Notes under the pieces: generated by a model | Told to the model about the DNA's origin: nothing | The model's input: the letters and a program-made list of their open reading frames with translations, nothing else | Databases searched by the model: none | Part shown: in pieces, positions 22,304-35,763 of the stretch | Layout: each line of letters opens with the position of its first letter | Position numbering within the stretch: the first letter of the stretch is position 1 | Assembly: GCA_045656445.1 (NCBI GenBank) | Contig: JAZORD010000027.1 | Span: 2,452 to 66,451, forward strand | DNA length: 64,000 nt | Direction of reading: 5' to 3' | From: Eubacteriales bacterium | Lineage (GTDB): Bacteria > Bacillota > Clostridia > Oscillospirales > CAG-272 | Position numbers and translations under genes: made by a program

Positions 22304-24181
22304 TTAACAAGGGTTAGGATAACAGTTTTTAAGGTTTTCTAAACTGAGTTCTAACCAGTTTATTACGTAGTCAACGTGACCTTCCCAGGTTTGTATTCTA
22401 TAAATTTCCTCTGGGGAATAGCCGCTCGAATCAACACCGAGAATTTCCCAACGGTTAAAGTTGCGGTTGAAAGCTTCTTTATGGCTCATAACATAGTCAT
22501 AACAATCGGTGACAGTTGATGTTATAGTGTCTTCAAGCTCTGCGAGCCTATTTGCAACTATTTCGGTGAATTCATCGAATTTTAAGAGCCTATTATACCA
22601 GAAATTAGTTTCCTTTGCCCAAAGATATTCAATGTCAACTGCATTTTCCTGATAAGAACAGTTTCCCGTGCTTAAGTCATAGTCCCAAATAGGACCTCTA
22701 TATAGCTTTCCATCCTTATCCTTATACATATAAAAGCTTGAAAATCCTATGTCAACGCAGTGCATAAGCTCATCAAGGATATATCCGTCAGCAAAGCTGT
22801 AAACATCCATAAGGGACGTTACTTCGTTGAAGTCTTCTCCGTCAAGAGCGGTCATACACTGCTGGATATAGCTCTTAATATAAGCAACGTGAGCATCGTT
22901 GAAGTCCTCTTCCTCGGGGTCTGGAGATTTTATAGCGTAGTTTATTGAGCCGCTTCCAACTGGAATGTTGAAATAATCAATATTTTCAACGCCTTCCTGT
23001 GGCGCGCGTGAATCCATTTCTATAAGATATCCCGTGTTTGCAGAGGTGTAATCCTCGTCAATATCTACTCTGTGCGAGCCAACCTCAATCTGTTCGCAAA
23101 TCAGATACACACCGTCGTATCTGCCGTTTACGTAGACCTCGGCGGTTTTAAAGCTCGTTGTATAATTTAAATTTTCAAACTCAGCTCCAAGGGAGTATGC
23201 GATGTAGTTTCTTATTAAGCTGCAGTCCATATAATTTGCAATAATCGTCCAGGTTTTTGACTTTCCATTACCGAAAAGGTCAATCTTATCGTCGAACTTT
23301 AATTTGTACGGACTCTTTGGAAGATAAGCGGTTGAATTACCGCGAAGCTTTATTTTTCCGCTTTTGGAGGAAAATTCAAAATCGGGGTCAGCGTTTGATA
23401 CGGAAACCGAGCATTTTACGTAATCATCTTTTGTGGCAATGGGCTTAGAATCCTCGGTAACGATAGAGATAATGGGAAGATTTAACTCTTCCATCACGAA
23501 AACAGCCGTGACCGTTATATCCTCCTTGGCTATTACGGCAAGCTCTTTGGATTCTGCACCGTTGCTCCATCCTAGGAACTTATATCCAACGTCAGCAACT
23601 GCCGAAACAGGTTCGGAGGTGTTTCCGTAAGCTACGGATTGAGTCGTCTTGCCAGTTATGTATCCGCCATCGCTAGAAATATATTTAACGGTATAATGAA
23701 TTGGCGCGAACTCAGCGATAATCTCCATATTGCTTTGGGGAGCCAAATCGGTTCTTTTTGTATCGGTAATACCGTCACTCCACTTAACAAATTTGTATCC
23801 TTCGAGAGCGCATGCCTCGACCTGAGTGCAATCTTTACCGCGAGCAATTGTTTGAATTGAGTCGCCCGAGATATAGCCACCATTACTTGAGGCATACTTG
23901 ACGTTGTAATGAATTTGAGCAAACTCTGCAGTAATTTTGATATCGTCTTGGGGTTTGACGTCGGTTCTCGTAGCCTCGGTAACGCCGTCGCTCCACTTGA
24001 CAAAAGTATATCCGTCGTTTGCGATCGCGCTTACCGGAGTAAATTTCTTTGACTGCGACAAAACACCGTCGATGTAACCGCCCTCAGAGGCTTCGTAGTT
24101 AATCGTATAACCATTATCGCAAGCAAAAAAAGTCGCAGTAGAAAAAACAACCAAAATAATAAATAAAGCTTTTTTCAACAT
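22304..24181 (-). CDS. CotH kinase-family protein, predicted lipoprotein, with three N-terminal Listeria-Bacteroides (InlB B-type) repeats
   Basis: The C-terminal roughly 390 aa look CotH-like. The N-terminus is MLKKALFIILVVFSTATFFAC (signal peptide plus Cys). I prefer the ATG at 24181 (GGAAAGG RBS 8 nt upstream) over the ATG at 24208. Confidence 0.75.
   Translation of the reverse strand: MLKKALFIILVVFSTATFFACDNGYTINYEASEGGYIDGVLSQSKKFTPVSAIANDGYTFVKWSDGVTEATRTDVKPQDDIKITAEFAQIHYNVKYASSNGGYISGDSIQTIARGKDCTQVEACALEGYKFVKWSDGITDTKRTDLAPQSNMEIIAEFAPIHYTVKYISSDGGYITGKTTQSVAYGNTSEPVSAVADVGYKFLGWSNGAESKELAVIAKEDITVTAVFVMEELNLPIISIVTEDSKPIATKDDYVKCSVSVSNADPDFEFSSKSGKIKLRGNSTAYLPKSPYKLKFDDKIDLFGNGKSKTWTIIANYMDCSLIRNYIAYSLGAEFENLNYTTSFKTAEVYVNGRYDGVYLICEQIEVGSHRVDIDEDYTSANTGYLIEMDSRAPQEGVENIDYFNIPVGSGSINYAIKSPDPEEEDFNDAHVAYIKSYIQQCMTALDGEDFNEVTSLMDVYSFADGYILDELMHCVDIGFSSFYMYKDKDGKLYRGPIWDYDLSTGNCSYQENAVDIEYLWAKETNFWYNRLLKFDEFTEIVANRLAELEDTITSTVTDCYDYVMSHKEAFNRNFNRWEILGVDSSGYSPEEIYRIQTWEGHVDYVINWLELSLENLKNCYPNPC
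23495..24109 (-). repeat. Three tandem in-frame repeats of about 64-71 codons inside the CotH gene
   Basis: The repeats are Y(T/N)(I/V)xY.S..GGYI.G ... GY.F(V/L).WS(D/N)G ... (I/V)TA.F. They cover residues 34-97, 98-168 and 169-238 of the 634-aa track ORF. Confidence 0.75.
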
Positions 24182-24210
24182 AAAGAAAACCTTTCCACAA
24201 ATCCACAATC

Positions 24211-24280: not shown

Positions 24281-24871
24281 TTAAAACCAGCTCGTAATAA
24301 ATATTTCAAGACCTATTAATATGAGAATTGCACCACCGAAAATACCCGCCTTGCCGGCAAGACTTGTGCCTGCTTTTTTGCCGATTGCAATGCCTAAGAA
24401 GCAAATAAAGAAGGTAACTAATCCTATAAGAAGGCAGGAAAGAAGCGCCTCGGGAAATTCATATTCCGAAATGGTAAATCCTACCGAAAGCGCGTCAATT
24501 GAGGTTGCGATTCCCTGAACGACGAGCGCTCCGAAGCAGGCAACCTGGGTTTCCTCGCAGTTGGTGTCTTTATTTTTAATTCCTTCGTAAAGCATTTTTC
24601 CTCCGATATATCCAAGCAGTAAAAGCGCTATCCAAGGAATGAATTTTTCAAATTTTCCAAAAATCTGAGCGACCGTGGTAACGCAAACCCAGCCAAGAAG
24701 AGGCATAGCGAACTGGAAAAACGCGAAAATGCCGGCAACTCCGTACATTTTAGGTTTTTTCATACACGGCTCGCTCAGTCCGTTGGCTAGCGACACCGAG
24801 AAGGCGTCCATAGCAAGTCCAACGCCAAGCATAATGCTCATAAAAAAGAATGAAAAAACAGAGGGCATCAT
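24281..24871 (-). CDS. mntP: Manganese efflux pump MntP
   Basis: 196 aa, six TM helices, with a duplicated DAFSVS / DALSVG motif. Confidence 0.88.
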   Translation of the reverse strand: MMPSVFSFFFMSIMLGVGLAMDAFSVSLANGLSEPCMKKPKMYGVAGIFAFFQFAMPLLGWVCVTTVAQIFGKFEKFIPWIALLLLGYIGGKMLYEGIKNKDTNCEETQVACFGALVVQGIATSIDALSVGFTISEYEFPEALLSCLLIGLVTFFICFLGIAIGKKAGTSLAGKAGIFGGAILILIGLEIFITSWF

Positions 24872-25067
24872 TTTCTCCTAAAAAATCCAAGCGCGGATTG
24901 CCGAGCTTTGCATAGGGAAATACGACCTTATGCACAGGTGATTTCGGCTCGGAACGAGTTTAGCAATTTAAAACAAGCCAGACCTTTCTGTGAGGATGTT
25001 GATTTGTTACACCGGCGGCGCTTGCCACTACCTCAAAGGCTTAGATTATAGTAAAAATCTTCATTAC
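24872..25067 (-). promoter_or_regulatory. Structured 5' leader of mntP of about 195 nt (candidate metal-sensing riboswitch or attenuator; class unresolved)
   Basis: Runs from the predicted TSS to the start codon. It contains CCUUUGAGGUAGUGGC...CCUCACAGAAAGG pairing, a nested CCGAGC...GCUCGG helix, and a short hairpin AAUCCgcgcuuGGAUUUUUU that abuts the AGGAG RBS. Confidence 0.35.
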
Positions 25068-25073
25068 GCGGAC

Positions 25074-25102
25074 ATTATATCATACGAAAGATAAAATGTC
25101 AA
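25074..25102 (-). promoter_or_regulatory. Sigma-A-type promoter of mntP
   Basis: On the minus strand: TTGACA (25102..25097), 17-nt spacer ending in TGA, TATAAT (25079..25074). Confidence 0.55.
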
Positions 25103-25142: not shown

Positions 25143-25493
25143 TTACCCAAGAGAGTATACTATGACGCCTAAAATTATCAAAGCCGTTCCAAGAAGTTGC
25201 TTTTTTGTGAGTTTTTCCTTTAAAAATGCAAAACTCATTAAGGCAACGAAAATATAACCGCAGGATTCAAGCACTGGTGACATTGAGAGAGGAACCACCT
25301 TAAGCGCGTACATAGATATAATTGTGCAGCCGAAAAACAATGTGTAGCCTATTATCACATAAGGGTTCAGGTACTCCCTGATTTTTGAAGAGTATTTTAT
25401 CCCAGCGCTTTTCTTTAAAAGGATTTGCGATACCGATGAAACGAATACGCTGAATAACAAAATGAGTGAATAAACGATAAGATCCTTATTCAT
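25143..25493 (-). CDS. Small four-TM EamA/DMT half-transporter (ArnE-like flippase subunit candidate)
   Basis: 116 aa with four hydrophobic helices. It overlaps the upstream paralogue by 8 nt and is the last gene of the glycosylation operon. Confidence 0.6.
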   Translation of the reverse strand: MNKDLIVYSLILLFSVFVSSVSQILLKKSAGIKYSSKIREYLNPYVIIGYTLFFGCTIISMYALKVVPLSMSPVLESCGYIFVALMSFAFLKEKLTKKQLLGTALIILGVIVYSLG

Positions 25494-25881
25494 CTTTCAC
25501 CTCTGCCGGTGTTTCGTTAGACTGACTTAAGTCTTGATCTGGGTCACTTTCGGTCACCATAAGAACAACTCCGATAAGAACGATTGCGGCTCCGACAATA
25601 TTCCAAACGGAAAGCGATTCGTCAAACATAGTTGCCCCAAACATCATCCCCCAAACGAGAGTGATGGATTTGTTTGCGAAAGCAAAATTTAACGGCATTA
25701 TTTTTAGTGTTTGCTGCCACAGCAGAGCATAACAACCCAAAATAAATATCTGAAGCGCGTATATTAAAAACCATTTCGTCGAGAAAAAATCAAGCTTGGA
25801 TGCATATTTAGAGCAAACCGAGCTCAACGCATAAAGGAAAATGATAGAATGAAGAAAGACGAGATTTTTAACTTTTTTCAT
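25486..25881 (-). CDS. Small four-TM EamA/DMT half-transporter (ArnF-like flippase subunit candidate)
   Basis: 131 aa with four hydrophobic helices and an acidic C-terminal tail. Paired with the 116-aa paralogue. Confidence 0.6.
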   Translation of the reverse strand: MKKVKNLVFLHSIIFLYALSSVCSKYASKLDFFSTKWFLIYALQIFILGCYALLWQQTLKIMPLNFAFANKSITLVWGMMFGATMFDESLSVWNIVGAAIVLIGVVLMVTESDPDQDLSQSNETPAEVKDE

Positions 25882-25898
25882 TATTTACACCCGTAACG

Positions 25899-27080
25899 TT
25901 ATTTCATTATGACGGAAATCCTGTCGTTAAATTCAACTACAGCGCGATTCATATCGTCAAGGTTGTCGTATTCATAGAAAATATAAGCTATGCGTTCATT
26001 CATGCAGTTTTCTATTTTTTCGCCTGGCACGCACATTTCTATTTTTTTATATATGTGTTTTTCTATATCCTCGGGGATAGAATAGGAAACGAGCGTTCCG
26101 TTTTTTTCAGCCATAATACCGTGGTGTCCGCAAAACGCTCTTTTTCTTTGAATCCTTTCAAGAGAGCGCGAGTCGCCGCCGGTTTGCGTTATAACCTGAG
26201 CTTTGTGCCACTGAAAATCGGTATTATCCTCAACAAGCTGAAGAAACTGATTTCCAAACGGTCTTCTCATCATCTCTATTATGCTGAATTTTTTACCGTC
26301 CCTTATGAGCTGAAACGCAAAAACGCCGTCAACCAAGGAAAGATCATCTGCTATAGATTCTATTATTCTGCAAAGCTCATCGGAAATATCCTGCATATGG
26401 ACAGCCGGCAATGTTTCCGATTGTATCAAATACGGATTAATTGGCGAATAGGAGTTGCATCCGGTATATGATACGACTCTTTTGTTTTGCAAAAAGGCAA
26501 CGAAAGTTTGCTGAACGCCTGTTATAAACGGCTCAATAATTATATTGTCGGAGCGAGTGACACGGTACGCGTTATCAACCGCGATGTATCCCTCCTCCTT
26601 ATTGTTTGCCTTCATAATTCCTTTCCCGCCGGTAAGGTCGGTTGCTTTCACTATTACAGGATAGGATGCAGAATCAAGATATTTCTTCGCTGATTCGGCA
26701 CTCGTAAAAACATTTGAGATGGGGGAGGGAATATTCTTCGCATTCAAATATTTCTTGAACTTGTCCTTCAGATGAAGAAGCTCGGCGTTTTTATAGGTAT
26801 CGTGTCCCTGCCATCCCATTTTTTCGGCAACATATGCCGCGGTCAGCACGCTGAAATCGTTAGCGCAGCTGATTATAGAATCTATTTTTCTATCCTTTAC
26901 AAGTTTCAGTATTGCTTCCTTGTCTGAATAATCGGCGGGGATATATTCGTCGGCATATCTGTGCCCGACAAGATGCGGTGCATTCCCGGTCGTTACTACG
27001 TAATAACCGAGCTTATGAGCCTCTTCAATAAGCGGAATTTCACAAAAGCTTCCGTTTAAAATCAGTACCTTTTTCTTCAT
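25899..27080 (-). CDS. ATP-grasp family ligase
   Basis: YPVIVKATDLTGGKGI (P-loop-like lid), IIIEPFITG, and EMMRRPFGN (Mg/ATP-binding E..N region). 393 aa. Confidence 0.75.
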   Translation of the reverse strand: MKKKVLILNGSFCEIPLIEEAHKLGYYVVTTGNAPHLVGHRYADEYIPADYSDKEAILKLVKDRKIDSIISCANDFSVLTAAYVAEKMGWQGHDTYKNAELLHLKDKFKKYLNAKNIPSPISNVFTSAESAKKYLDSASYPVIVKATDLTGGKGIMKANNKEEGYIAVDNAYRVTRSDNIIIEPFITGVQQTFVAFLQNKRVVSYTGCNSYSPINPYLIQSETLPAVHMQDISDELCRIIESIADDLSLVDGVFAFQLIRDGKKFSIIEMMRRPFGNQFLQLVEDNTDFQWHKAQVITQTGGDSRSLERIQRKRAFCGHHGIMAEKNGTLVSYSIPEDIEKHIYKKIEMCVPGEKIENCMNERIAYIFYEYDNLDDMNRAVVEFNDRISVIMK

Positions 27081-27081
27081 A

Positions 27082-28035
27082 TTACTCCTCGCCGCACTCG
27101 CCGTCGGAGTCCACGTTATAGGTTTCCCGAATAGCGAATTGGGGCGCTTTATTTAGGCTTATATAAATTCTTCCGATGTATTCTCCAAGAAGACCCAAAA
27201 ACAGCATTATGATACCCGACAGTATAAGCGTGATCGCCATAATTGAGCTGTATCCAACCGGTATTGTGGGATTAAGTATCTTCTTGATAATCGTTACGAT
27301 CGCGTAAGCGAATCCGCCGATAGAGCAAAAAACGCCAAAAAGCGACGCGATTCTGAGAGGTTTTTCCGAAAAAGCTGTAAATCCGTTCATCCAGAGAGAT
27401 AAAAGTTTTTTGAAGCTATATCCGGACGAGCCGTGCTCGCGCGATTTGTGCTCAATAACAACGTTTGCCATATTTCGCGTGATTCTGAGAATGAGTCCGT
27501 GAACAAAGGGGTAAGCGTTTTTGTATTTTATTATTTCATCAAGTATATACCTTTTAAAAACATAATAGCTATTTAGATCTATATCCTTCGGCTTTCCAAT
27601 AAAATAGGAGGACATCCAGAAGCTCAGCTTCGTTCCTATTTTTCTGAACAACGATCGCTTTTTCTCCTCATATTTTGCAGAAACCAAATCATAACCCTCA
27701 TCAAGCTTATCAATAAGCTTAAACATTTGGGACGGGGGGTTCTGACCGTCGTCGTCAAGGCAAACGATTATATCTCCCGTTGCGTAATTGAAGCCCGCCA
27801 TAAGCGCGGAATGCTGTCCAAAATTTCTTGAAAAGCTAAGGACTTTGATTTTTGAGTTCTTCTCCGCAATCCGCTTTAGAACATCAAGAGTGCTGTCTCT
27901 TGAAAAGTCGTTGACGCAGACAATTTCATAATCATATCTGCCGTCAGCGTTGACGGTATCTATGATTTCCGATATAACTCCGCCTACTGTTTGTTCCGAG
28001 CAATAGCAGGGAATAATAAACGAAAGTTTTTTCAT
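27082..28035 (-). CDS. Family 2 glycosyltransferase, polyprenyl-phosphate sugar transferase type (ArnC / GtrB / CsbB-like)
   Basis: IIPCY...NDFSRD...LDDDGQNP (DxD) catalytic domain plus two C-terminal TM helices. 317 aa. Confidence 0.85.
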   Translation of the reverse strand: MKKLSFIIPCYCSEQTVGGVISEIIDTVNADGRYDYEIVCVNDFSRDSTLDVLKRIAEKNSKIKVLSFSRNFGQHSALMAGFNYATGDIIVCLDDDGQNPPSQMFKLIDKLDEGYDLVSAKYEEKKRSLFRKIGTKLSFWMSSYFIGKPKDIDLNSYYVFKRYILDEIIKYKNAYPFVHGLILRITRNMANVVIEHKSREHGSSGYSFKKLLSLWMNGFTAFSEKPLRIASLFGVFCSIGGFAYAIVTIIKKILNPTIPVGYSSIMAITLILSGIIMLFLGLLGEYIGRIYISLNKAPQFAIRETYNVDSDGECGEE

Positions 28036-28060: not shown

Positions 28061-28963
28061 TTAATTCTTGGAAAAGTATTCTTTAAGCTCAAGTATCATT
28101 TCCCGAATGTCGACCCGGGGAACGTATCCGGTATCCGCCTTGATTTTGTCAAGACAGACTTGCCAGCTACAATCGTCAGCGGGGTCCGGGGTTCCTGAAA
28201 AAACGATTTTCGACGTTGATCCGGTGAGCCTTACGCACATCTCTGCAAGGTCGCGGTTTGACACGAGATTATGGCTTGCAAGATTGTAAACTCCTTGTGC
28301 TTTTTTTGAAAGTATAGCTAGGTAAATTGCTTCAGCAATGTCGCTGACATGAACGTAGGTTTGCTTTCTTTTGCCCTCTCCTAATAGAGTGATGTTTTCC
28401 CCTTTTATCGCTTTGCTTACAAATACGGGGAAAATGGTTTTGGGGTTCATTCCGGGTCCTACGGGGGCGGATATTCTGTAGCTTACCGTTCTCACACCGT
28501 ATGTGTAATACGCATAGTTTGCAAGAAGCTCCTGCATAACCTTGGTGCAATGGTACACGGTAGGAGGTCTTAACGTGTGAGCTTCTGTAATAGGAGCTTC
28601 GGAGGGAGTGCCTATTACAGGAAGACTTGAAAGCTGAACGAAAACTCCCACTCCCTTGTTCCTGCAAAGCTCAAGAAGCCTCTGCGCACCGACGCAGTTG
28701 TTTTTGATTACGTCAAGCGTGTAGGGTTCTTTTCTCATATCTGCGGCGAGGTGAACGATTGCATCGGGCAGATTGTCCTTCGTCATACCGTCAAGAATTG
28801 TATCTGTTTTCTCGCTGTAAAGGTCGCAAAAAATATATTCATCGGTTTCAACCCTGGACTCCTCAGCCCTATCAAGACCTATAACGTAACAGCCCTTGCT
28901 TTTAAGATGGCGAACTACGTGACCACCTATAAAGCCGTTTGAGCCTGTAACTAAAACCTTCAT
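28061..28963 (-). CDS. NAD-dependent epimerase/dehydratase family SDR acting on a nucleotide sugar
   Basis: VTGSNGFIGGHV Rossmann motif and a Ser...YHCTK catalytic triad. There is no TDE motif of the 4,6-dehydratase type. Confidence 0.8.
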   Translation of the reverse strand: MKVLVTGSNGFIGGHVVRHLKSKGCYVIGLDRAEESRVETDEYIFCDLYSEKTDTILDGMTKDNLPDAIVHLAADMRKEPYTLDVIKNNCVGAQRLLELCRNKGVGVFVQLSSLPVIGTPSEAPITEAHTLRPPTVYHCTKVMQELLANYAYYTYGVRTVSYRISAPVGPGMNPKTIFPVFVSKAIKGENITLLGEGKRKQTYVHVSDIAEAIYLAILSKKAQGVYNLASHNLVSNRDLAEMCVRLTGSTSKIVFSGTPDPADDCSWQVCLDKIKADTGYVPRVDIREMILELKEYFSKN

Positions 28964-28989: not shown

Positions 28990-30120
28990 TTATTTGTTAA
29001 AAAACTTGATTACGTGCTCTGTTACACGGTGCACATCGTCAACGGTTAATCCGTAATACATAGGAAGGCGGAGCAAACGTTCGCTTTCCCGGGTTGTGTA
29101 ACGATCCTCGCCGTTAAAACGTCCGTATTTTATACCCGCAGGAGCAGAGTGAAGCGGAATATAGTGGAAAACGGTCTGTATTTCATTAGATTTAAGATAG
29201 TTTATAAGCTCAGTTCTCTGCTCGCAATCTTTAACTTTTATATAAAACATATGCGCGTTGTGGCAGCAGTCCGTGGGAATAAAGGGAAGCTCAATAGCGC
29301 CCCTTTCCTCAAGCTGATAAAGGTGGCTATAATAAGTGTTCCAGCAGCTCATTCTTCTATTATATATTTCTCTTTCCTTTTCCAGCTGAGCCCAAAGATA
29401 CGCGGCGTTAATGTCGCTTGGAAGATATGAAGAGCCAAAATCAACCCAAGTATACTTATCTATCTGTCCTCTAAAAAATTTGCTTCGGTTAGTTCCTTTT
29501 TCTCTGACTATCTCGGCTTTTTCTATACTTTCGGGGTCCCTTATAAGAAGCGCGCCACCTTCACCCATACTGAGGTTTTTGGTTTCGTGGAAGGAATAGC
29601 ATCCGAAGTCGCTCAGCGTTCCAAGAGCCTGTTCTTTATAGGTTGAGCCAAATCCCTGCGCCGCGTCCTCAACGACTTTGAGATTGTATTTCTGCGCCAA
29701 AGCATTGATTTTATCCATATCACAGCTTACTCCGGCATAGTGAACGGGAACGATGGCCTTTGTTTTTTTAGTTATTGCATCCTCTATGAGATTTGCGTCG
29801 ATATTCATAGTTTTGGGGTCAATGTCAACGAACACCACCGTGGCTCCTCTTGAAACGAATGCATCTGCCGTGGAAACGAAGGTGTAAGAGGGCATAATAA
29901 CCTCATCCCCCGGTTTAATATCACACAGGATCGCAGCCATCTCAAGAGCGTGAGTACAGGAGGTGGTGAGAAGTGCTTTACTTGTGCCGGTAAATTCCTC
30001 TATCCAACGGTTACATTTTTTTGTAAACTCTCCGTCGCCGCAAATTTTGTGGTTGTTAATCGCATCCTCCACGTAAATTAATTCCTTTCCGACAAAGGGG
30101 GGAACATTAAAGTAAATCAT
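28990..30120 (-). CDS. DegT/DnrJ/EryC1-family PLP aminotransferase, closest in style to dTDP-4-amino-4,6-dideoxygalactose transaminase WecE
   Basis: Long stretches match my recollection of E. coli WecE: VIMPSYTFVSTA, VPVHYAGV.C.MD, FHETKN, REKGTNRS.FFRGQ.DKYTW, AHMFYIK, VFHYIPLH and GEDRYTT.ESERLLRLP. Confidence 0.88.
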   Translation of the reverse strand: MIYFNVPPFVGKELIYVEDAINNHKICGDGEFTKKCNRWIEEFTGTSKALLTTSCTHALEMAAILCDIKPGDEVIMPSYTFVSTADAFVSRGATVVFVDIDPKTMNIDANLIEDAITKKTKAIVPVHYAGVSCDMDKINALAQKYNLKVVEDAAQGFGSTYKEQALGTLSDFGCYSFHETKNLSMGEGGALLIRDPESIEKAEIVREKGTNRSKFFRGQIDKYTWVDFGSSYLPSDINAAYLWAQLEKEREIYNRRMSCWNTYYSHLYQLEERGAIELPFIPTDCCHNAHMFYIKVKDCEQRTELINYLKSNEIQTVFHYIPLHSAPAGIKYGRFNGEDRYTTRESERLLRLPMYYGLTVDDVHRVTEHVIKFFNK

Positions 30121-33095
30121 AGCTTATCCTTTTTATATTTGATTTTTGAAATTACGCATAGAGTAGAAAAGATCGCAATGCTAATGCAAGAAATTACAAG
30201 CCCGAGAGATATCATAGGAGTTCGATACTTAAAAACAACATTATGCTCTCCGGCAGATAATTGAATTGCAGAAAAGGCAATGTCACCGCGAACTATTTCC
30301 ACCTTGACACCGTCAACGTAAGCCGTCCATCCGTCCTCGTAAGGAATTGGCATCATAAGCCATCCGTCCTCGGATGTGTTGACCGTTCCAGTTATATAGT
30401 TGCTTTTGTCCGGTCTTTCGAAATTTATATAAGCTGTCGCTTCTTTTTCGTTTGATAGCCCCTCGGCGCCGTCTAGGATTAAAGAATTTCCAAGAACCTG
30501 TTTTTTTTGGTTTTTATCAAAGGAGATAAAATCCTCATAGCCTATCGTGCTCGTATAAAATTTGCCGAATCCTGACGTAGTATTGTTCCTGTAAACATGA
30601 ACACCTCCGAAGGTTTTGATATACTCGTATTCTGGAACGTCTGTAATAAGGAAATCGGACAAAATGTACTTCACGCCCATAATTGACGTTACGGCAGTGT
30701 TTTTGTATGCATACCTAAAGTCGTAATATCCGTCCTGATACGGATAGTTTCTTAATTCGGGGCAGGCGTTTGTAACGAAATCAATGACGTTTTTATTTAT
30801 TATTGAGTTGTAAACCGATACACCGTAATAGCCCTCAAGCATAGCGTCGTTCCATTTACAAACTCCCATAAAGGTTTTGTCAGTTCGGTGGAAGGAGGTG
30901 TCAATTTGCTCAATGTAATCAAGAGCGTCAATAACGTCAGAGTTGCCCGAATCCTCATAAATACGCAAATCTGCCTCGCAAATTTTTATTCGAGAATTGG
31001 TGGTGATATATCCGTCAATCGATACGTTTGAAACTACCAAGCAAGCAATAAAAGCAATACTAAGCGTTTTTTTGAATTTGGGTTGAGCAGTGTCTTGAAG
31101 AGCGCAGGTTGCAAAAGCAAACAGCATCATTAAAACAATATAAATCGTTGCGGTCTCCCCAACGTCCTTAGCTAAACCTGCCTGCGCGTTTTCGGTCAAA
31201 ATTTTAGCAAACAGGAAAACCGACAGCACCGAGGCGGAGCATATTTGCAGGCGCGCGTGAGACAATCCGCCATTTATCAGCTTGTCAAGGGTGTCCGCAA
31301 ACAACAGGGCGAAGATTGGCATTAATATAAAAGTGTATCTGAAAAAGTCAGTAACGAATCCGTTCAATATAACCGACATCAGCGGATGAAAAATCAAGGC
31401 CGCAATGATGAAAACGGAAGCCAACTTTAAGACTTTAGTCTTAGCGGATTCTTTTCTGTCCAAGAGAATATTCAATAAAAAGATGAAAATGAATGATACG
31501 AAGAAAACAGAGAAGAAAAATTGAGGACTCTCGTAATAATTTAAGCCTCCGGACGGTTTTCCCGCTCCGTTTAGGTTGTTTGAGAAGAATCTTGAGACTA
31601 TTTCCCGAACCATAGCATCATCATAGCGAGGAGCTTTAAAATAGCTCAATAAAACGTCAAAAATCGCCACTTCGCCGCCAACCCGCGCGCTCGTTGTGAG
31701 AATAAGGTAAACGCAGGGGATAAAAATAGCAGCAGACATACCGATGCCAAGGAACACCGAGGCTAAAAGAGCACCGCACCTTTTCACCGCAGGTACGAAT
31801 TCGGATTTTGAATATATAGAAATGATGCGGAACAAAGCGTAGATGGCTGCCATGATAAGAATCATATAGGCAAAATAATAAGAGCTAACCGCAACGCAAA
31901 AAACAGATATAATAAGCCAGATATATCCGTTGCGGTGTTTTAATGCGCGCTCTATTCCAAATAAAACAAAAACGGCACAGATTGGCGCTGTTGCAAAAAA
32001 GTAGTGCTGTCCCCAAAGCATCGTAAAGCCATTGAACGCGAACACGTAGGACGCTATAACCTTTGAGGAGCTTGAAAAATTAAAGCTGGAAAGGTAAAAA
32101 TAACATAAATATCCAGAAACGAAGAGTTTCAGCACCTGAGAAAACGGAAGCAAATATTTAATTGCGTTTTTCCCAAAAATCAGAGTAAGCCAAACAAAAG
32201 GACTGGTTACGTCGGTTTGTCTGCCTAGAATATTGGTGCCAAGACCATAAGAGAAATCCCACATAGAAAAATCGAGCGTCTCGAGCTTCTCCTGCATTGC
32301 CATAAAGAAGGGATAGTATACGTTGCGGGTGTCGCTGCCGATATCAGAATAGATAAATATTTCGCGGCAGAGCAAAAAGTCTTTGAAAACTATAAAAGAG
32401 GTCGCTACCATCAAAGCTGAAAGAACAATTAAGGGACGCTTTGCTATATAATTTTTAGTTTTAGAGAGTGCTTGGAGAACAGTAATATCCGACGCCTTGC
32501 ATCTCAAAATAGTATAGATGCTCAAAATCAATGCAAGTGACACTGCTAAAAATGTCAAAAAGATCCTAAGAAAATTAAAGGGCTGTGTAAATCCCCTGTG
32601 CGTACCAATAAGCTCGCCGGAGCTAACTACGACATCCGCAAGAGAAAACCTTTTGTTTATATCCAAGCGTATTGATTCGTACGTCTCACCGGGCAAAGAC
32701 ACGCAAATCGCATCCTCGCCCTTTTCAATTATCGCAGTAACCGAATTTGTGGCGGAAAACGGCTCGCCTGCCTTGCAGAAGAAGATCTGTATAGCACTTT
32801 CAATATGAGATTTTGACTCAAAACGTATCAAGAGCGTTTTGATGTTTTGGTTTATTCCTGAAATAATAATCTGTGGGTCGTTGTTTATCGGAGTATAGGA
32901 GTTATCCGTTTCCTTGTACCCTTGGCTGTATCTAGGATAGACCTCATCGTCTAAAACAGAGGTTTGTCGTTCGGAAAAATCATACAAGCTGCCCTGCGTG
33001 AAAAAAAACGCCTCTAAAAACAAGGAAAAAAGAAGCGATATTGCAAGAAGCAAAATCAACTTATAATGCTTTTTTAAGAAAACGGATATTTTCAT
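30117..33095 (-). CDS. YfhO-family GT-C-type membrane glycosyltransferase (992 aa) with an extra N-terminal extracytoplasmic domain
   Basis: N-terminal TM, a soluble segment of about 140 aa, about 12-14 TM helices, a C-terminal extracytoplasmic domain of about 250 aa, and a final TM. The SDIGSDTRNVYYPFF...WDFSYGLGTNILG region is YfhO-like. It overlaps the aminotransferase start by 4 nt. Confidence 0.7.
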   Translation of the reverse strand: MKISVFLKKHYKLILLLAISLLFSLFLEAFFFTQGSLYDFSERQTSVLDDEVYPRYSQGYKETDNSYTPINNDPQIIISGINQNIKTLLIRFESKSHIESAIQIFFCKAGEPFSATNSVTAIIEKGEDAICVSLPGETYESIRLDINKRFSLADVVVSSGELIGTHRGFTQPFNFLRIFLTFLAVSLALILSIYTILRCKASDITVLQALSKTKNYIAKRPLIVLSALMVATSFIVFKDFLLCREIFIYSDIGSDTRNVYYPFFMAMQEKLETLDFSMWDFSYGLGTNILGRQTDVTSPFVWLTLIFGKNAIKYLLPFSQVLKLFVSGYLCYFYLSSFNFSSSSKVIASYVFAFNGFTMLWGQHYFFATAPICAVFVLFGIERALKHRNGYIWLIISVFCVAVSSYYFAYMILIMAAIYALFRIISIYSKSEFVPAVKRCGALLASVFLGIGMSAAIFIPCVYLILTTSARVGGEVAIFDVLLSYFKAPRYDDAMVREIVSRFFSNNLNGAGKPSGGLNYYESPQFFFSVFFVSFIFIFLLNILLDRKESAKTKVLKLASVFIIAALIFHPLMSVILNGFVTDFFRYTFILMPIFALLFADTLDKLINGGLSHARLQICSASVLSVFLFAKILTENAQAGLAKDVGETATIYIVLMMLFAFATCALQDTAQPKFKKTLSIAFIACLVVSNVSIDGYITTNSRIKICEADLRIYEDSGNSDVIDALDYIEQIDTSFHRTDKTFMGVCKWNDAMLEGYYGVSVYNSIINKNVIDFVTNACPELRNYPYQDGYYDFRYAYKNTAVTSIMGVKYILSDFLITDVPEYEYIKTFGGVHVYRNNTTSGFGKFYTSTIGYEDFISFDKNQKKQVLGNSLILDGAEGLSNEKEATAYINFERPDKSNYITGTVNTSEDGWLMMPIPYEDGWTAYVDGVKVEIVRGDIAFSAIQLSAGEHNVVFKYRTPMISLGLVISCISIAIFSTLCVISKIKYKKDKL

Positions 33096-33138: not shown

Positions 33139-33160
33139 TATAATACCATTATAATACCAT
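33139..33160. repeat. Perfect tandem duplication of an 11-mer (TATAATACCAT x2)
   Basis: Copies at 33139..33149 and 33150..33160. On the minus strand each copy reads ATGGTATTATA, which is an extended -10-like element. Confidence 0.9.
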
Positions 33161-33179
33161 ACACTATCTACAAAGTCAA
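33151..33179 (-). promoter_or_regulatory. Sigma-A-type promoter of the glycosylation operon
   Basis: On the minus strand: TTGACT (33179..33174), 17-nt spacer ending in TGG, TATTAT (33156..33151). Confidence 0.5.
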
Positions 33180-33232: not shown

Positions 33233-33261
33233 TTGACAATCTATACTATGCATTGTATAAT
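33233..33261 (+). promoter_or_regulatory. Sigma-A-type promoter of the GT8 operon
   Basis: TTGACA (33233..33238), 17-nt spacer, TATAAT (33256..33261). It leaves a leader of about 147 nt. Confidence 0.55.
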
Positions 33262-33408: not shown

Positions 33409-34329
33409 ATGACAGATATGCACATTCCGATATTTTTTTCAACAGACGATAATTACATACCGTATCTCGACGTTGCCATAGCGTCGCTTATAACAAACGC
33501 ATCAAAAGAATACAAATACAGGATCATCGTTTTGAATACAGGACTCAAACCGGAGAATGTTGAGCGGGTTAAGAAAAACGAAAGACCGGGTATTACTATT
33601 GACTTTTTGGATATATCGGATGAGGTAGAGAAGATAAAATCCCGCCTCAAAAACGTATATCATTTTTCGGTAGCAACATATTACAGGCTTTTTATCGCGT
33701 CTCTTTTCCCGCAGTATGATAAAATAGTTTACCTTGACTGCGACCTCGTTGTTCTGGGGGATATATCCGAGCTTTATAACACCGAGCTTGGTGAAAATAT
33801 TTTGGGAGCAGCTCCCGAAGAGTTCGTTCAGAATACCAAGGAATTTCGGGATTATGCAAGGGTGGCTCTCGGAGTTGACCCCGACGGCTACGTCAATGCG
33901 GGAGTTCTCGTCATTAACCTTGAAGAGTTCAGGAAAAACGAGATTGAAAAAAAGTTCTTGAGGCTTATAACCGAATACGATTTCGACCTTCTCGATCCAG
34001 ACCAGGCGTACTTAAACTATCTTTGTGACGGCAAAATTTGCGTTTTGCCAAACGGATGGAACAAAGAGCCTATGCAGGTTCTTTGCGAGGGAAAGAAGAA
34101 CATAGTTCATTACGCGCTTTATAAGAAGCCCTGGCAGTACGACGACGTTCTTGACGGAGAATACTTTTGGCATTACGCTAAGAGCTCACCCTTTTATGAC
34201 ATTATACTTGAAAGAAAAGCGAGCTTTGGAGAACTTGAGCGTGCAGAAAAGGAAGCTATGAAAGATGAGATACTTGAGCATGCAAAGAAAATAACTGCGT
34301 CTGACTATACTTTTTCCAAAAAGCTTTGA
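33409..34329 (+). CDS. Family 8 glycosyltransferase (GspA / LPS 1,3-galactosyltransferase-like)
   Basis: IPIFFSTDDNYIPYL, YYRLF, YLDCDLVVLGD (DxD), and a HY...KPW C-terminal block. Confidence 0.85.
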   Translation: MTDMHIPIFFSTDDNYIPYLDVAIASLITNASKEYKYRIIVLNTGLKPENVERVKKNERPGITIDFLDISDEVEKIKSRLKNVYHFSVATYYRLFIASLFPQYDKIVYLDCDLVVLGDISELYNTELGENILGAAPEEFVQNTKEFRDYARVALGVDPDGYVNAGVLVINLEEFRKNEIEKKFLRLITEYDFDLLDPDQAYLNYLCDGKICVLPNGWNKEPMQVLCEGKKNIVHYALYKKPWQYDDVLDGEYFWHYAKSSPFYDIILERKASFGELERAEKEAMKDEILEHAKKITASDYTFSKKL

Positions 34330-34348
34330 GAAAGCTGAGGACGGCAAA

Positions 34349-35179
34349 ATGGAAAAATCCCCTCATAAGCTGGAGCTTATTAAAAAAATCTCGGAGTTTG
34401 AGAAAAAAGGGCTCTGGCACCTTGACGTAGAGGACGACCCGGAAACCTATCCGCTTATGCCTGACGCGGTGGATTATCTCAACGAGAGGCTCACAAGCAA
34501 AATAAAAAACCAAATCGCAAACCGACTTGGCGCAAGGTTTTTTGACAAAATGATTAAAAACCGAAGGCTCATTATAAAGGAAGTGCGCGGAATTGAGAAT
34601 TTTACTGCGGTAAAAGGCGGTAAAATCATTACCTGCAACCATTTCAATCCCTGCGATAACTACGCCGTATGGGTAGCATTGCGAGAGCATATGGGTGGAA
34701 AAAAGCTGTATAAGGTCATTCGCGAGGGCAACTACACCAACCCCCCGAAGCCCTTTGGTCTTTTTATGCGCCATTGCAACACGCTTCCCCTGTCAAGTCA
34801 GGTGGCAACTATGAAAAAATTTATGAAAGCCGTTAAGACTCTGCTCGAACGGGGTGAATCCATACTTATATATCCCGAGCAGAGTATGTGGTGGAATTAC
34901 CGCAAGCCGAAGCCGATGCAGGACGGCGCTTTTTCTCTTGCCGTTCGCAATAACGCCCCCGTTCTGCCGATATTCATTACTATGGAGGATAGCGACACAC
35001 TTGATGACGACGGATTTTTCGTTCAGGAATACACGGTCAACGTGCTTCCGGCTATTTATCCCGACCCGGACGTTTCCGGCGCAGAAGCAAAGGAAAAAAT
35101 GAAAAATGAAAACTATGAGGCGTGGGTAAGGGTCTATGAGGATTTTTACAAAAAGCCCCTCGTGTACGGTGAAATATGA
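34349..35179 (+). CDS. PlsC-family acyltransferase (lysophospholipid acyltransferase-like)
   Basis: HX4D (CNHFNPCDN) and a YPEQSMW block. 276 aa. Confidence 0.7.
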   Translation: MEKSPHKLELIKKISEFEKKGLWHLDVEDDPETYPLMPDAVDYLNERLTSKIKNQIANRLGARFFDKMIKNRRLIIKEVRGIENFTAVKGGKIITCNHFNPCDNYAVWVALREHMGGKKLYKVIREGNYTNPPKPFGLFMRHCNTLPLSSQVATMKKFMKAVKTLLERGESILIYPEQSMWWNYRKPKPMQDGAFSLAVRNNAPVLPIFITMEDSDTLDDDGFFVQEYTVNVLPAIYPDPDVSGAEAKEKMKNENYEAWVRVYEDFYKKPLVYGEI

Positions 35180-35763
35180 AGCTGTATCTTTCTACGATAG
35201 GTATCGCGATGACGGTGATTTCCGCAATTAACATAGCCTTCGGCGTGGCTGTGTGGTATTACGTCATAGCGTCTGTCGTTTGGTGCACGGCGCTCTGCTT
35301 TGCTCTTGACGGCGGTATAGCGATTCTTATAAATAAAATGCCTGACTGTTGGTTTGGAGTCGATAATCCGCGCTTTGAGGTATCCAAGAGGGAAATGGAG
35401 CTTTACAAAAGGTTGAGGGTAAGGCTATGGAAGGATAAGGTATGGGAACTTGGCGGTCTTGGGGGATTCAGCAAAAAAACCTTGCTTGAGCCGGACAGTC
35501 CGGAATACATAGAAAAGTTTATAATCGAGTGCAATAAAGGTGTTATCACGCACAGGTTATCCTATCCTGCGGGATTTCTCGTAATGCTGACGATGTTGAA
35601 TATTTGCTCCTTTACCGTGGCGCTTCCGGTTGCGGCGGTTAATCTACTCCTTAATATTTTGCCAACTCTTGCCCTCAGATATAACACGCCGAAGCTAAAA
35701 ACGCTTCTAAATAGACTGAGAAAAAAGCAAGAAAGGGCGCGTGAGTGCGCGGATATAATGTAG
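35176..35763 (+). CDS. CrtO-like membrane acyltransferase (glycosyl-4,4'-diaponeurosporenoate acyltransferase family)
   Basis: The C-terminal half (IEKFIIECNKGVITHRLS...LLNILPTLALRYNTPKLKTLLNRLRKK) parallels my recollection of S. aureus CrtO (IEKMIIETKRAELIHW...[27 protein letters not shown]). It overlaps the upstream stop codon by 4 nt. Confidence 0.6.
   Translation: MKLYLSTIGIAMTVISAINIAFGVAVWYYVIASVVWCTALCFALDGGIAILINKMPDCWFGVDNPRFEVSKREMELYKRLRVRLWKDKVWELGGLGGFSKKTLLEPDSPEYIEKFIIECNKGVITHRLSYPAGFLVMLTMLNICSFTVALPVAAVNLLLNILPTLALRYNTPKLKTLLNRLRKKQERARECADIM

Follow-up and report, generated by a model that had tools for sequence, protein, structure and literature searches.

Among the systems that decorate the bacterial cell envelope, those of the YfhO/CsbB type equip teichoic acids and proteins with plain hexoses or GlcNAc, and lipid A receives a cationic amino sugar from the Arn system (PmrHFIJKLM). 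N-acylation of a nucleotide-linked 4-amino sugar by an ATP-grasp enzyme has been established with Pyl, an enzyme from Bacillus cereus ATCC 14579 (PMC11626204; Hwang et al. 2014, cited in PMC8987622). Pyl belongs to a UDP-yelosamine pathway (Pdeg dehydratase, Pat aminotransferase, Pyl) in which the ATP-grasp enzyme follows the 4-aminotransferase at the point where an N-acetyltransferase would be expected. A second precedent is CDR20291_0245 of Clostridioides difficile R20291, where the ATP-grasp mutant lacks the terminal peptidylamido sugar of the type B flagellin glycan (PMC5207246). Here we analysed a stretch of 64,000 nucleotides (the window) from a gut Clostridia bacterium of the order Eubacteriales (GenBank assembly GCA_045656445.1, contig JAZORD010000027.1, positions 2,452 to 66,451 of the forward strand), in which an ATP-grasp ligase gene (25899-27080, minus strand; protein P0001) belongs to a seven-gene minus-strand operon that, judged from its sequence, most likely produces a lipid-carried 4-amino sugar destined for the cell surface. 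We moderately favor the reading that this ligase N-acylates the 4-amino group of a 4-amino-4,6-dideoxyhexose with a small carboxylic acid. The chemistry is known in kind, and what is new is the pathway setting, i.e. a dTDP-linked WecE product, an Arn-like route through a family 2 glycosyltransferase (GT2), a flippase and YfhO, and a co-conserved short-chain dehydrogenase/reductase (SDR).

The ligase gene is an intact open reading frame with an ATG start, encoding 393 amino acids, and it lies where the initial annotation had placed it, between the lipid-carrier GT2 gene upstream and the EamA pair of candidate flippase genes downstream. Its ribosome-binding site, GAGGAG (27085-27090, minus strand), is located inside the 3' end of the GT2 gene and is followed in order by the GT2 stop codon TAA (27082-27084), one base and the ligase ATG (27078-27080); as both elements directly precede the start, we read the ligase gene as translationally coupled to the GT2 gene. 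Pfam, NCBIfam, the AlphaFold fold and the family alignment together identify P0001 as, most likely, a soluble, cytoplasmic ATP-grasp carboxylate-amine ligase. Also in the operon is a WecE-type dTDP-4-keto-6-deoxyglucose 4-aminotransferase (376 amino acids; 28990-30120, minus strand), which scores 628.6 bits with model NF008687 against a cut-off of 375, aligns over its full length with the WecE structures 6blg and 4piw (534 and 530 bits), and is the only strong DegT-family gene of the genome; the ArnB model reached 198.9 bits in the operon against its cut-off of 631. Pfam and NCBIfam scans of the operon found no acetyl-, acyl- or formyltransferase gene, and a search of the whole genome (assembly of 1.51 Mb in 78 contigs, 98% complete) returned zero matches to WecD and only two to Formyl_trans_N, a 315-residue frame and a 220-residue frame beside purD, which look like Fmt and PurN. 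The description of the locus as an amino-sugar pathway with neither an N-acetyltransferase nor an ArnA-type formyltransferase was therefore borne out by both searches, and P0001 sits by the sugar 4-aminotransferase gene in place of the N-acetyltransferase, as Pyl does. Nor is the pathway incomplete: rmlA and rmlB are present on contigs other than that of the operon, so that WecE has its substrate. Outside the window, two rmlB matches were seen (499 and 442 bits; C51:7967-9331 and C68:10457-13121), both located at contig ends and both with an rmlA-type NTP_transferase match alongside; the genome may have two copies, or the assembly may have split a single locus.

The other members of the operon, all on the minus strand, resemble components of lipid-carrier glycosylation. 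A YfhO-family GT-C membrane glycosyltransferase (992 amino acids; 30117-33095; Pfam YfhO 5.8e-70, about 14 hydrophobic segments) is the presumed final transferase. The polyprenyl-phosphate GT2 (317 amino acids; 27082-28035; Glycos_transf_2 2.8e-29) is of the ArnC/PgfS/CsbB type, carries two C-terminal transmembrane segments (residues 229-247 and 257-275), and scores 205 bits with the PgfS model and 190 bits with the ArnC model (cut-off 529), in both cases under the NCBIfam cut-off. Pfam and NCBIfam scans gave no GtrA-family match in the operon, and its place is taken by two small EamA/SMR-like membrane proteins, which are candidate flippase subunits with likeness to ArnE and ArnF: the first (131 amino acids; 25486-25881) matches EamA at 3.4e-05 and ArnE at 4.6e-07, and the second (116 amino acids; 25143-25493), with four hydrophobic segments and an 8-nucleotide overlap with the first, matches them at 1.3e-09 and 7.5e-07, with both ArnE scores (about 30 bits) under the cut-off of 92. 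With a single GT2 for carrier loading, a single candidate flippase pair and a single GT-C in the operon, the simplest reading is that its three soluble enzymes share one sugar as their substrate. The third of these, which was left unused in the initial annotation, is an extended SDR (300 amino acids; 28061-28963; Epimerase family 4.7e-43). It scores 103 bits with the RmlB model against a cut-off of 365, and alignment to RmlB structures shows S-L-P at the position of the dehydratase T-D-E, with Y-x-x-x-K further on; because of this replacement, and as the motifs LSSLPVIG and YHxTK are kept in the orthologues, we assign it to an orphan subfamily of epimerase- or reductase-type extended SDRs. A role as the 4,6-dehydratase of the pathway was rejected on the S-L-P motif and on the presence of a true RmlB in this genome as well as at several homologous loci.

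Conservation of this gene set was followed in 40 loci (38 from a one-genome-per-species collection and two from assembly look-ups) whose ligases are 47-78% identical to P0001, in a search seeded from a closer alignment than that used for structure prediction. Orthologues of the GT2 were found in 34 of the 40, of the SDR in 32, with a second SDR type in seven more, and of WecE in 28, and the EamA pair follows the module in 12. The ligase usually adjoins the SDR gene directly, or the GT2 gene alone lies between them, and the linkage of the SDR to the ligase is as tight as that of the GT2. A minimal module of GT2, SDR and ATP-grasp, with no further soluble enzyme, recurs at several loci (e.g. L001, L035, L037, L038, L065). 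Four genomes in which WecE was not nearby were checked elsewhere, and all four carry an orthologue (47-63% identity). In two of them, both Bacteroidales, wecE is divergently adjacent to an 885-residue frame (L087:6289-10159 and L088:9111-12983), which in L087, the one scanned, belongs to the YfhO family (2.7e-36), and the GT2-SDR-ATP-grasp trio is found at another locus, between the genes for DsbD and fructose-1,6-bisphosphatase; the set of components is thus retained in genomes where it is divided between two loci. At most loci the module is accompanied by large polytopic membrane proteins, one group of which (about 630 residues) is YfhO-related. Two other groups, of about 930 (e.g. L044:5270-8059) and about 600 residues (e.g. 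L032:143-1957), have no Pfam match, recur by WecE or by the module in 8 and 9 loci, respectively, and are candidates for unrecognized GT-C-like transferases. Among more distant relatives (26-42% identity, from metagenomes and an unbiased class-level genome sample), a DegT aminotransferase lies within a few genes of the ligase in seven of nine loci; the class-level sample of 250 genomes itself yielded six distant homologues, at 26-33% identity, and zero close ones. The homologues are co-inherited with WecE, GT2 and SDR across Clostridia and Bacteroidales, and with YfhO-family proteins these make up five co-inherited components.

On this basis we propose a route in which RmlA and RmlB, encoded elsewhere in the genome, would form dTDP-4-keto-6-deoxyglucose, and the operon WecE would convert it to dTDP-4-amino-4,6-dideoxygalactose (dTDP-Fuc4N). 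The ligase would then use ATP to phosphorylate a small carboxylic acid, and attack of the sugar amine on the acyl phosphate would give the amide. The acyl-sugar is probably tailored by the SDR, our preferred guess being reduction of an oxo group of the acyl chain. Acylation would take place at the dTDP-Fuc4N stage, on the nucleotide-linked rather than the lipid-linked sugar, after which the GT2 would load the N-acyl sugar onto undecaprenyl phosphate, the EamA pair would flip the lipid-linked product across the membrane, and YfhO would move the N-acyl sugar to an acceptor in the cell envelope. Acylation of the sugar 4-amino group had already been suggested in the initial annotation, and as a hypothesis it draws good support from comparative genomics (co-inheritance with WecE, GT2 and SDR, the nearby DegT genes of the distant relatives, and a carboxylate-amine ligase fold) as well as from the precedents.

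Compared with Pyl, to which we liken P0001 by gene context and chemistry, the window operon differs in several respects. The Pyl sugar is a UDP-linked 2-acetamido sugar, whereas that of the window would be the dTDP-linked product of WecE, and the Pyl genes lie directly upstream of a small monotopic phosphoglycosyl transferase (PMC11626204), in contrast to a GT2 acting onto undecaprenyl monophosphate, a flippase pair and a YfhO GT-C. The window system also has its own co-conserved SDR. CDR20291_0245 likewise has a dTDP-sugar aminotransferase gene as its neighbor within a glycan locus (PMC5207246), but that aminotransferase is FdtB-like and acts at the 3-position, while WecE acts at the 4-position; CDR20291_0245 has been assigned to Pfam PF13535 (PMC5207246), to which P0001 has no match, and the C. 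difficile glycan is assembled on flagellin by cytoplasmic glycosyltransferases instead of by way of a lipid carrier and YfhO. The overall logic is that of Arn, in which an aminotransferase and N-acylation of a nucleotide amino sugar are followed by an ArnC-type GT2 acting onto undecaprenyl phosphate, a small two-subunit flippase and a GT-C. However, ArnA, ArnD and ArnT (GT83) are not found in the window operon, all Arn equivalog models score under their cut-offs, the sugar would be a 6-deoxyhexose derived from dTDP-glucose, N-acylation would be ATP-driven and not folate-dependent, and the GT-C is YfhO. With the three-component YfhO/CsbB system the operon shares the YfhO GT-C and a GT2 with C-terminal transmembrane helices, but the GtrA/GtcA flippase is not matched. 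We found no paper on a system combining YfhO, an aminotransferase, undecaprenyl and an ATP-grasp enzyme, nor on an ATP-grasp enzyme with viosamine. ATP-grasp acylation of a sugar as such has its precedents in Pyl and CDR20291_0245.

The structure of P0001 was predicted with AlphaFold from an alignment of 98 sequences, which gave a complete three-domain ATP-grasp fold with a mean predicted local distance difference test score (pLDDT) of 97.4 (a single-sequence model, at 40.7, was discarded). Residues 1-393 of the model align to many ATP-grasp structures at Z scores of 28-35, with the L-amino-acid ligase BL00235 nearest (35.2), followed by 4dim (34.3), PurT (33.1 over 377 residues), PurK (about 31.6), RizA (30.9) and BacD (about 30), and with biotin carboxylases in a similar range. 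The structure comparison that the initial annotation had suggested thus places carboxylate-amine ligases among the nearest relatives. These enzymes activate a small acid as an acyl or carboxy phosphate and most hand it over to an amine, which in PurT and PurK sits on a phosphoribosyl compound, so that the predicted fold of P0001 would be compatible with the proposed N-acylation, without identifying the acid. The L-amino-acid ligases (BL00235, BacD/YwfE, RizA) and PurT/PurK are the closest folds over nearly the full length (Z 30-35), with an acyl-phosphate mechanism and what we take to be a shared E-x-x-x-R catalytic motif, but they are only 14-17% identical to P0001, and the context of the window gene is glycan rather than purine or dipeptide synthesis. 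Five residues (K105, K145, G154, G188, G252) are invariant in the 98-sequence alignment, ten more (D50, D75, D94, D148, G152, E183, Q257, R272, R273, G276) are nearly so, and E269 is invariant in the close family; by analogy, these may include nucleotide-binding lysines, a glycine-rich loop and an acidic/arginine catalytic motif.

Family-level annotation of P0001 stops short of a reaction. Pfam matches include GARS_A (5.5e-14), CPSase_L_D2 (6.1e-08), ATP-grasp_3, Dala_Dala_lig_C and ATPgrasp_N, and zero NCBIfam models reach their own cut-off; the best, purD TIGR00877 (5.8e-17), scores 61.6 bits against 288 over residues 44-211 only, the purT models NF006766 and TIGR01142 give about 27-28 bits against 339 and 502, and purK is likewise far under its cut-off. 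The family profile matches BL00235 at 107 bits, while P0001 itself gave no match to LAL_C2 (PF18603) in the Pfam scan, and in the Protein Atlas only generic "ATP-grasp domain-containing protein" clusters were returned. A separate purD-like frame of 431 residues lies on another contig (C73), beside a purN-like gene, and therefore P0001 is not the purine enzyme; this gene, together with the conserved glycan context, also led us to reject a housekeeping purD paralogue. Homologues of P0001 are numerous, with 2,615 at E <= 1e-5 in a 90%-identity collection, mostly unnamed metagenomic proteins, and 5,188 matching clusters at E <= 0.001 in a 50%-identity library. Structure 4dim, a structural-genomics entry from Anaerococcus prevotii that is apparently unstudied in function and 21-22% identical to P0001, matches the family profile over its full length at 5.9e-60 and is thus the only solved member of the extended family; its deposited name, phosphoribosylglycinamide synthetase, is probably wrong and transferred by similarity. 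Fusions occur in the wider family, among them tandem double ATP-grasp proteins with LAL_C2 in one half (P0167, P0221), an ATP-grasp joined to an FkbM methyltransferase (P0208), and a ferredoxin-FrhB-ATP-grasp protein (P0264).

Clues to the acid come from related loci. In the ligase tree, P0001 falls in a well-supported clade with the ligases of L031, L065 and L001, with those of L034, L032 and a group of three Bacteroidales next out. The P0001 clade has the minimal module only, and in sister clades further genes lie by the ligase, encoding an HMGL-like aldolase or synthase of about 536 residues (11 loci), an HpcH/HpaI-like aldolase (4 loci) or a HAD_2 phosphatase (8 loci); the phosphatase is a separate gene in seven of these and in the eighth (L042:4325-6175) is fused to the N-terminus of the ligase in a protein of 616 amino acids. 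One clade, with the second SDR type, has a KdsA-like synthase, a cupin and a cytidylyltransferase-like protein. Aldolases, synthases and phosphatases of these kinds make or release oxo- and hydroxy-acids, which suggests reduction of an acyl-chain oxo group as the role of the SDR. Together, the SDR and the neighboring genes of the sister clades give a hint, weak because related loci are alike through common descent, of an oxo- or hydroxy-acid, in agreement with Pyl, which uses 2-oxoglutarate.

Several observations weigh against acylation of the sugar amine by P0001. Biotin carboxylases and carbamoyl-phosphate synthetase are also among its structural neighbors, so that the fold alone does not fix the reaction. 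WecE is not present in 12 of the 40 loci, some of which are cut by contig ends and four of which are the genomes checked above, and two of the nine distant relatives, one of them on an 8-kb contig, have no aminotransferase nearby. Several hexapeptide-repeat proteins, which are possible acyltransferases, are encoded elsewhere in the genome. The SDR has no assigned step in the textbook dTDP-Fuc4N route, and from its tight linkage the sugar chemistry could differ from that proposed.

Three other explanations were weighed. The ligase could be a formate-dependent, PurT-like stand-in for ArnA, making formyl phosphate and then an N-formyl amino sugar that would pull the unfavorable transamination and feed the ArnC-like GT2, with the formyl group possibly removed later. 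PurT does rank near the top of the structural matches (Z 33.1 over 377 residues), the ExxRR motif of P0001 (E269, R272, R273) resembles what we take to be the E-x-x-P-R motif of PurT and PurK, the natural substrate of ArnC, whose model the GT2 matches at 190 bits, is an N-formyl sugar, and the genome has no sugar formyltransferase. Yet the PurT models reach just 27-28 bits or so against cut-offs of 339-502, no ArnD-like deacylase recurs in the 40 loci, and formylation would leave both the co-conserved SDR and the sister-clade aldolase and phosphatase genes with no role, for which reasons we consider it quite improbable. The polarity could also be reversed, with the ligase activating the carboxylate of a uronic acid sugar and joining it to an amine, a reaction carried out for the Campylobacter jejuni capsule by the ATP-grasp domain of Cj1438, and with the SDR acting as a uronate 4-epimerase. 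The scores of the SDR with the UDP-glucuronate 4-epimerases MoeE5 (77 bits) and 6zl6 (62 bits) are comparable to those with RmlB. The Campylobacter system also includes a phosphatase, of which the HAD phosphatase of 8 sister loci, encoded beside the ligase or, in one case, as part of it, is reminiscent. This is nevertheless very improbable: a UDP-glucose dehydrogenase is not recurrent among the neighbors in the close family, the co-inherited aminotransferase is WecE, a sugar 4-aminotransferase above its equivalog cut-off, and the product of WecE would be left unused in an operon with a single carrier-loading GT2.

An alternative that keeps the ligase in the pathway, which we regard as unlikely, is that it acts not on the sugar amine but with the SDR on the side-chain acid, making it or extending it (e.g. 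by adding a second residue to an acylated sugar, or by building a small acyl donor), while another enzyme performs the first N-acylation. Double ATP-grasp relatives, either tandem or fused (P0167, P0221) or encoded by adjacent pairs (L086, L092, L093), suggest that, for some family members, the substrate is what another member has made, and the hexapeptide-repeat proteins mentioned above could supply the first acyl group. Set against this, the operon contains a single ligase and no other acyl-transferring enzyme, and the minimal GT2-SDR-ATP-grasp module recurs with no further soluble enzyme. N-acylation of the 4-amino sugar by P0001 is the reading with which we proceed.

Other features of the window frame the operon. 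Upstream of it, a promoter-like site on the minus strand (33151-33179; TTGACT-17-TATTAT with an extended TG, 10 of 12 matches) is recognized by consensus match only. The intergenic region is common to a divergent operon on the plus strand (33409-35763), which encodes a GT8 glycosyltransferase, a PlsC-type acyltransferase and a CrtO-like protein and has a perfect consensus promoter at 33233-33261. Just 3' of the ligase operon, a second perfect consensus promoter (25102-25074) precedes a long leader (24872-25102, minus strand) and mntP (24281-24871), with no clear intrinsic terminator seen between the operon and this promoter. Further along, at 22304-24208 on the minus strand, lies a gene for a CotH kinase-family protein with three Listeria-Bacteroides/InlB-B-type repeats at its N-terminus.

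More tentatively, and on balance with doubt, we suggest that the YfhO GT-C, WecE, the orphan SDR, the ArnC-type GT2 and the ligase form a five-part system, widespread among gut Clostridia and occurring in Bacteroidales too, that would add an N-(hydroxyacyl) 4-amino-6-deoxyhexose to envelope polymers via undecaprenyl phosphate, with the ligase and the SDR working in the sense of "ligate an oxo-acid, then reduce it", and with sister clades supplying 2-keto-3-deoxy acids by aldolases and phosphatases of their own. Such ligate-then-reduce N-acylation would, if true, be undescribed for nucleotide sugars. The orphan SDR subfamily accompanying the ligase adds a second enzyme without an assigned role, and the ligase family itself comprises thousands of genes and includes the 4dim structure, again without an assigned reaction, so that a single in vitro assay could annotate thousands of genes. 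If the proposed route is correct, YfhO would deliver an N-acylated 4-amino-6-deoxyhexose, a kind of surface decoration new to Gram-positive bacteria, with possible consequences in gut anaerobes for surface charge, phage receptors and recognition by the immune system.

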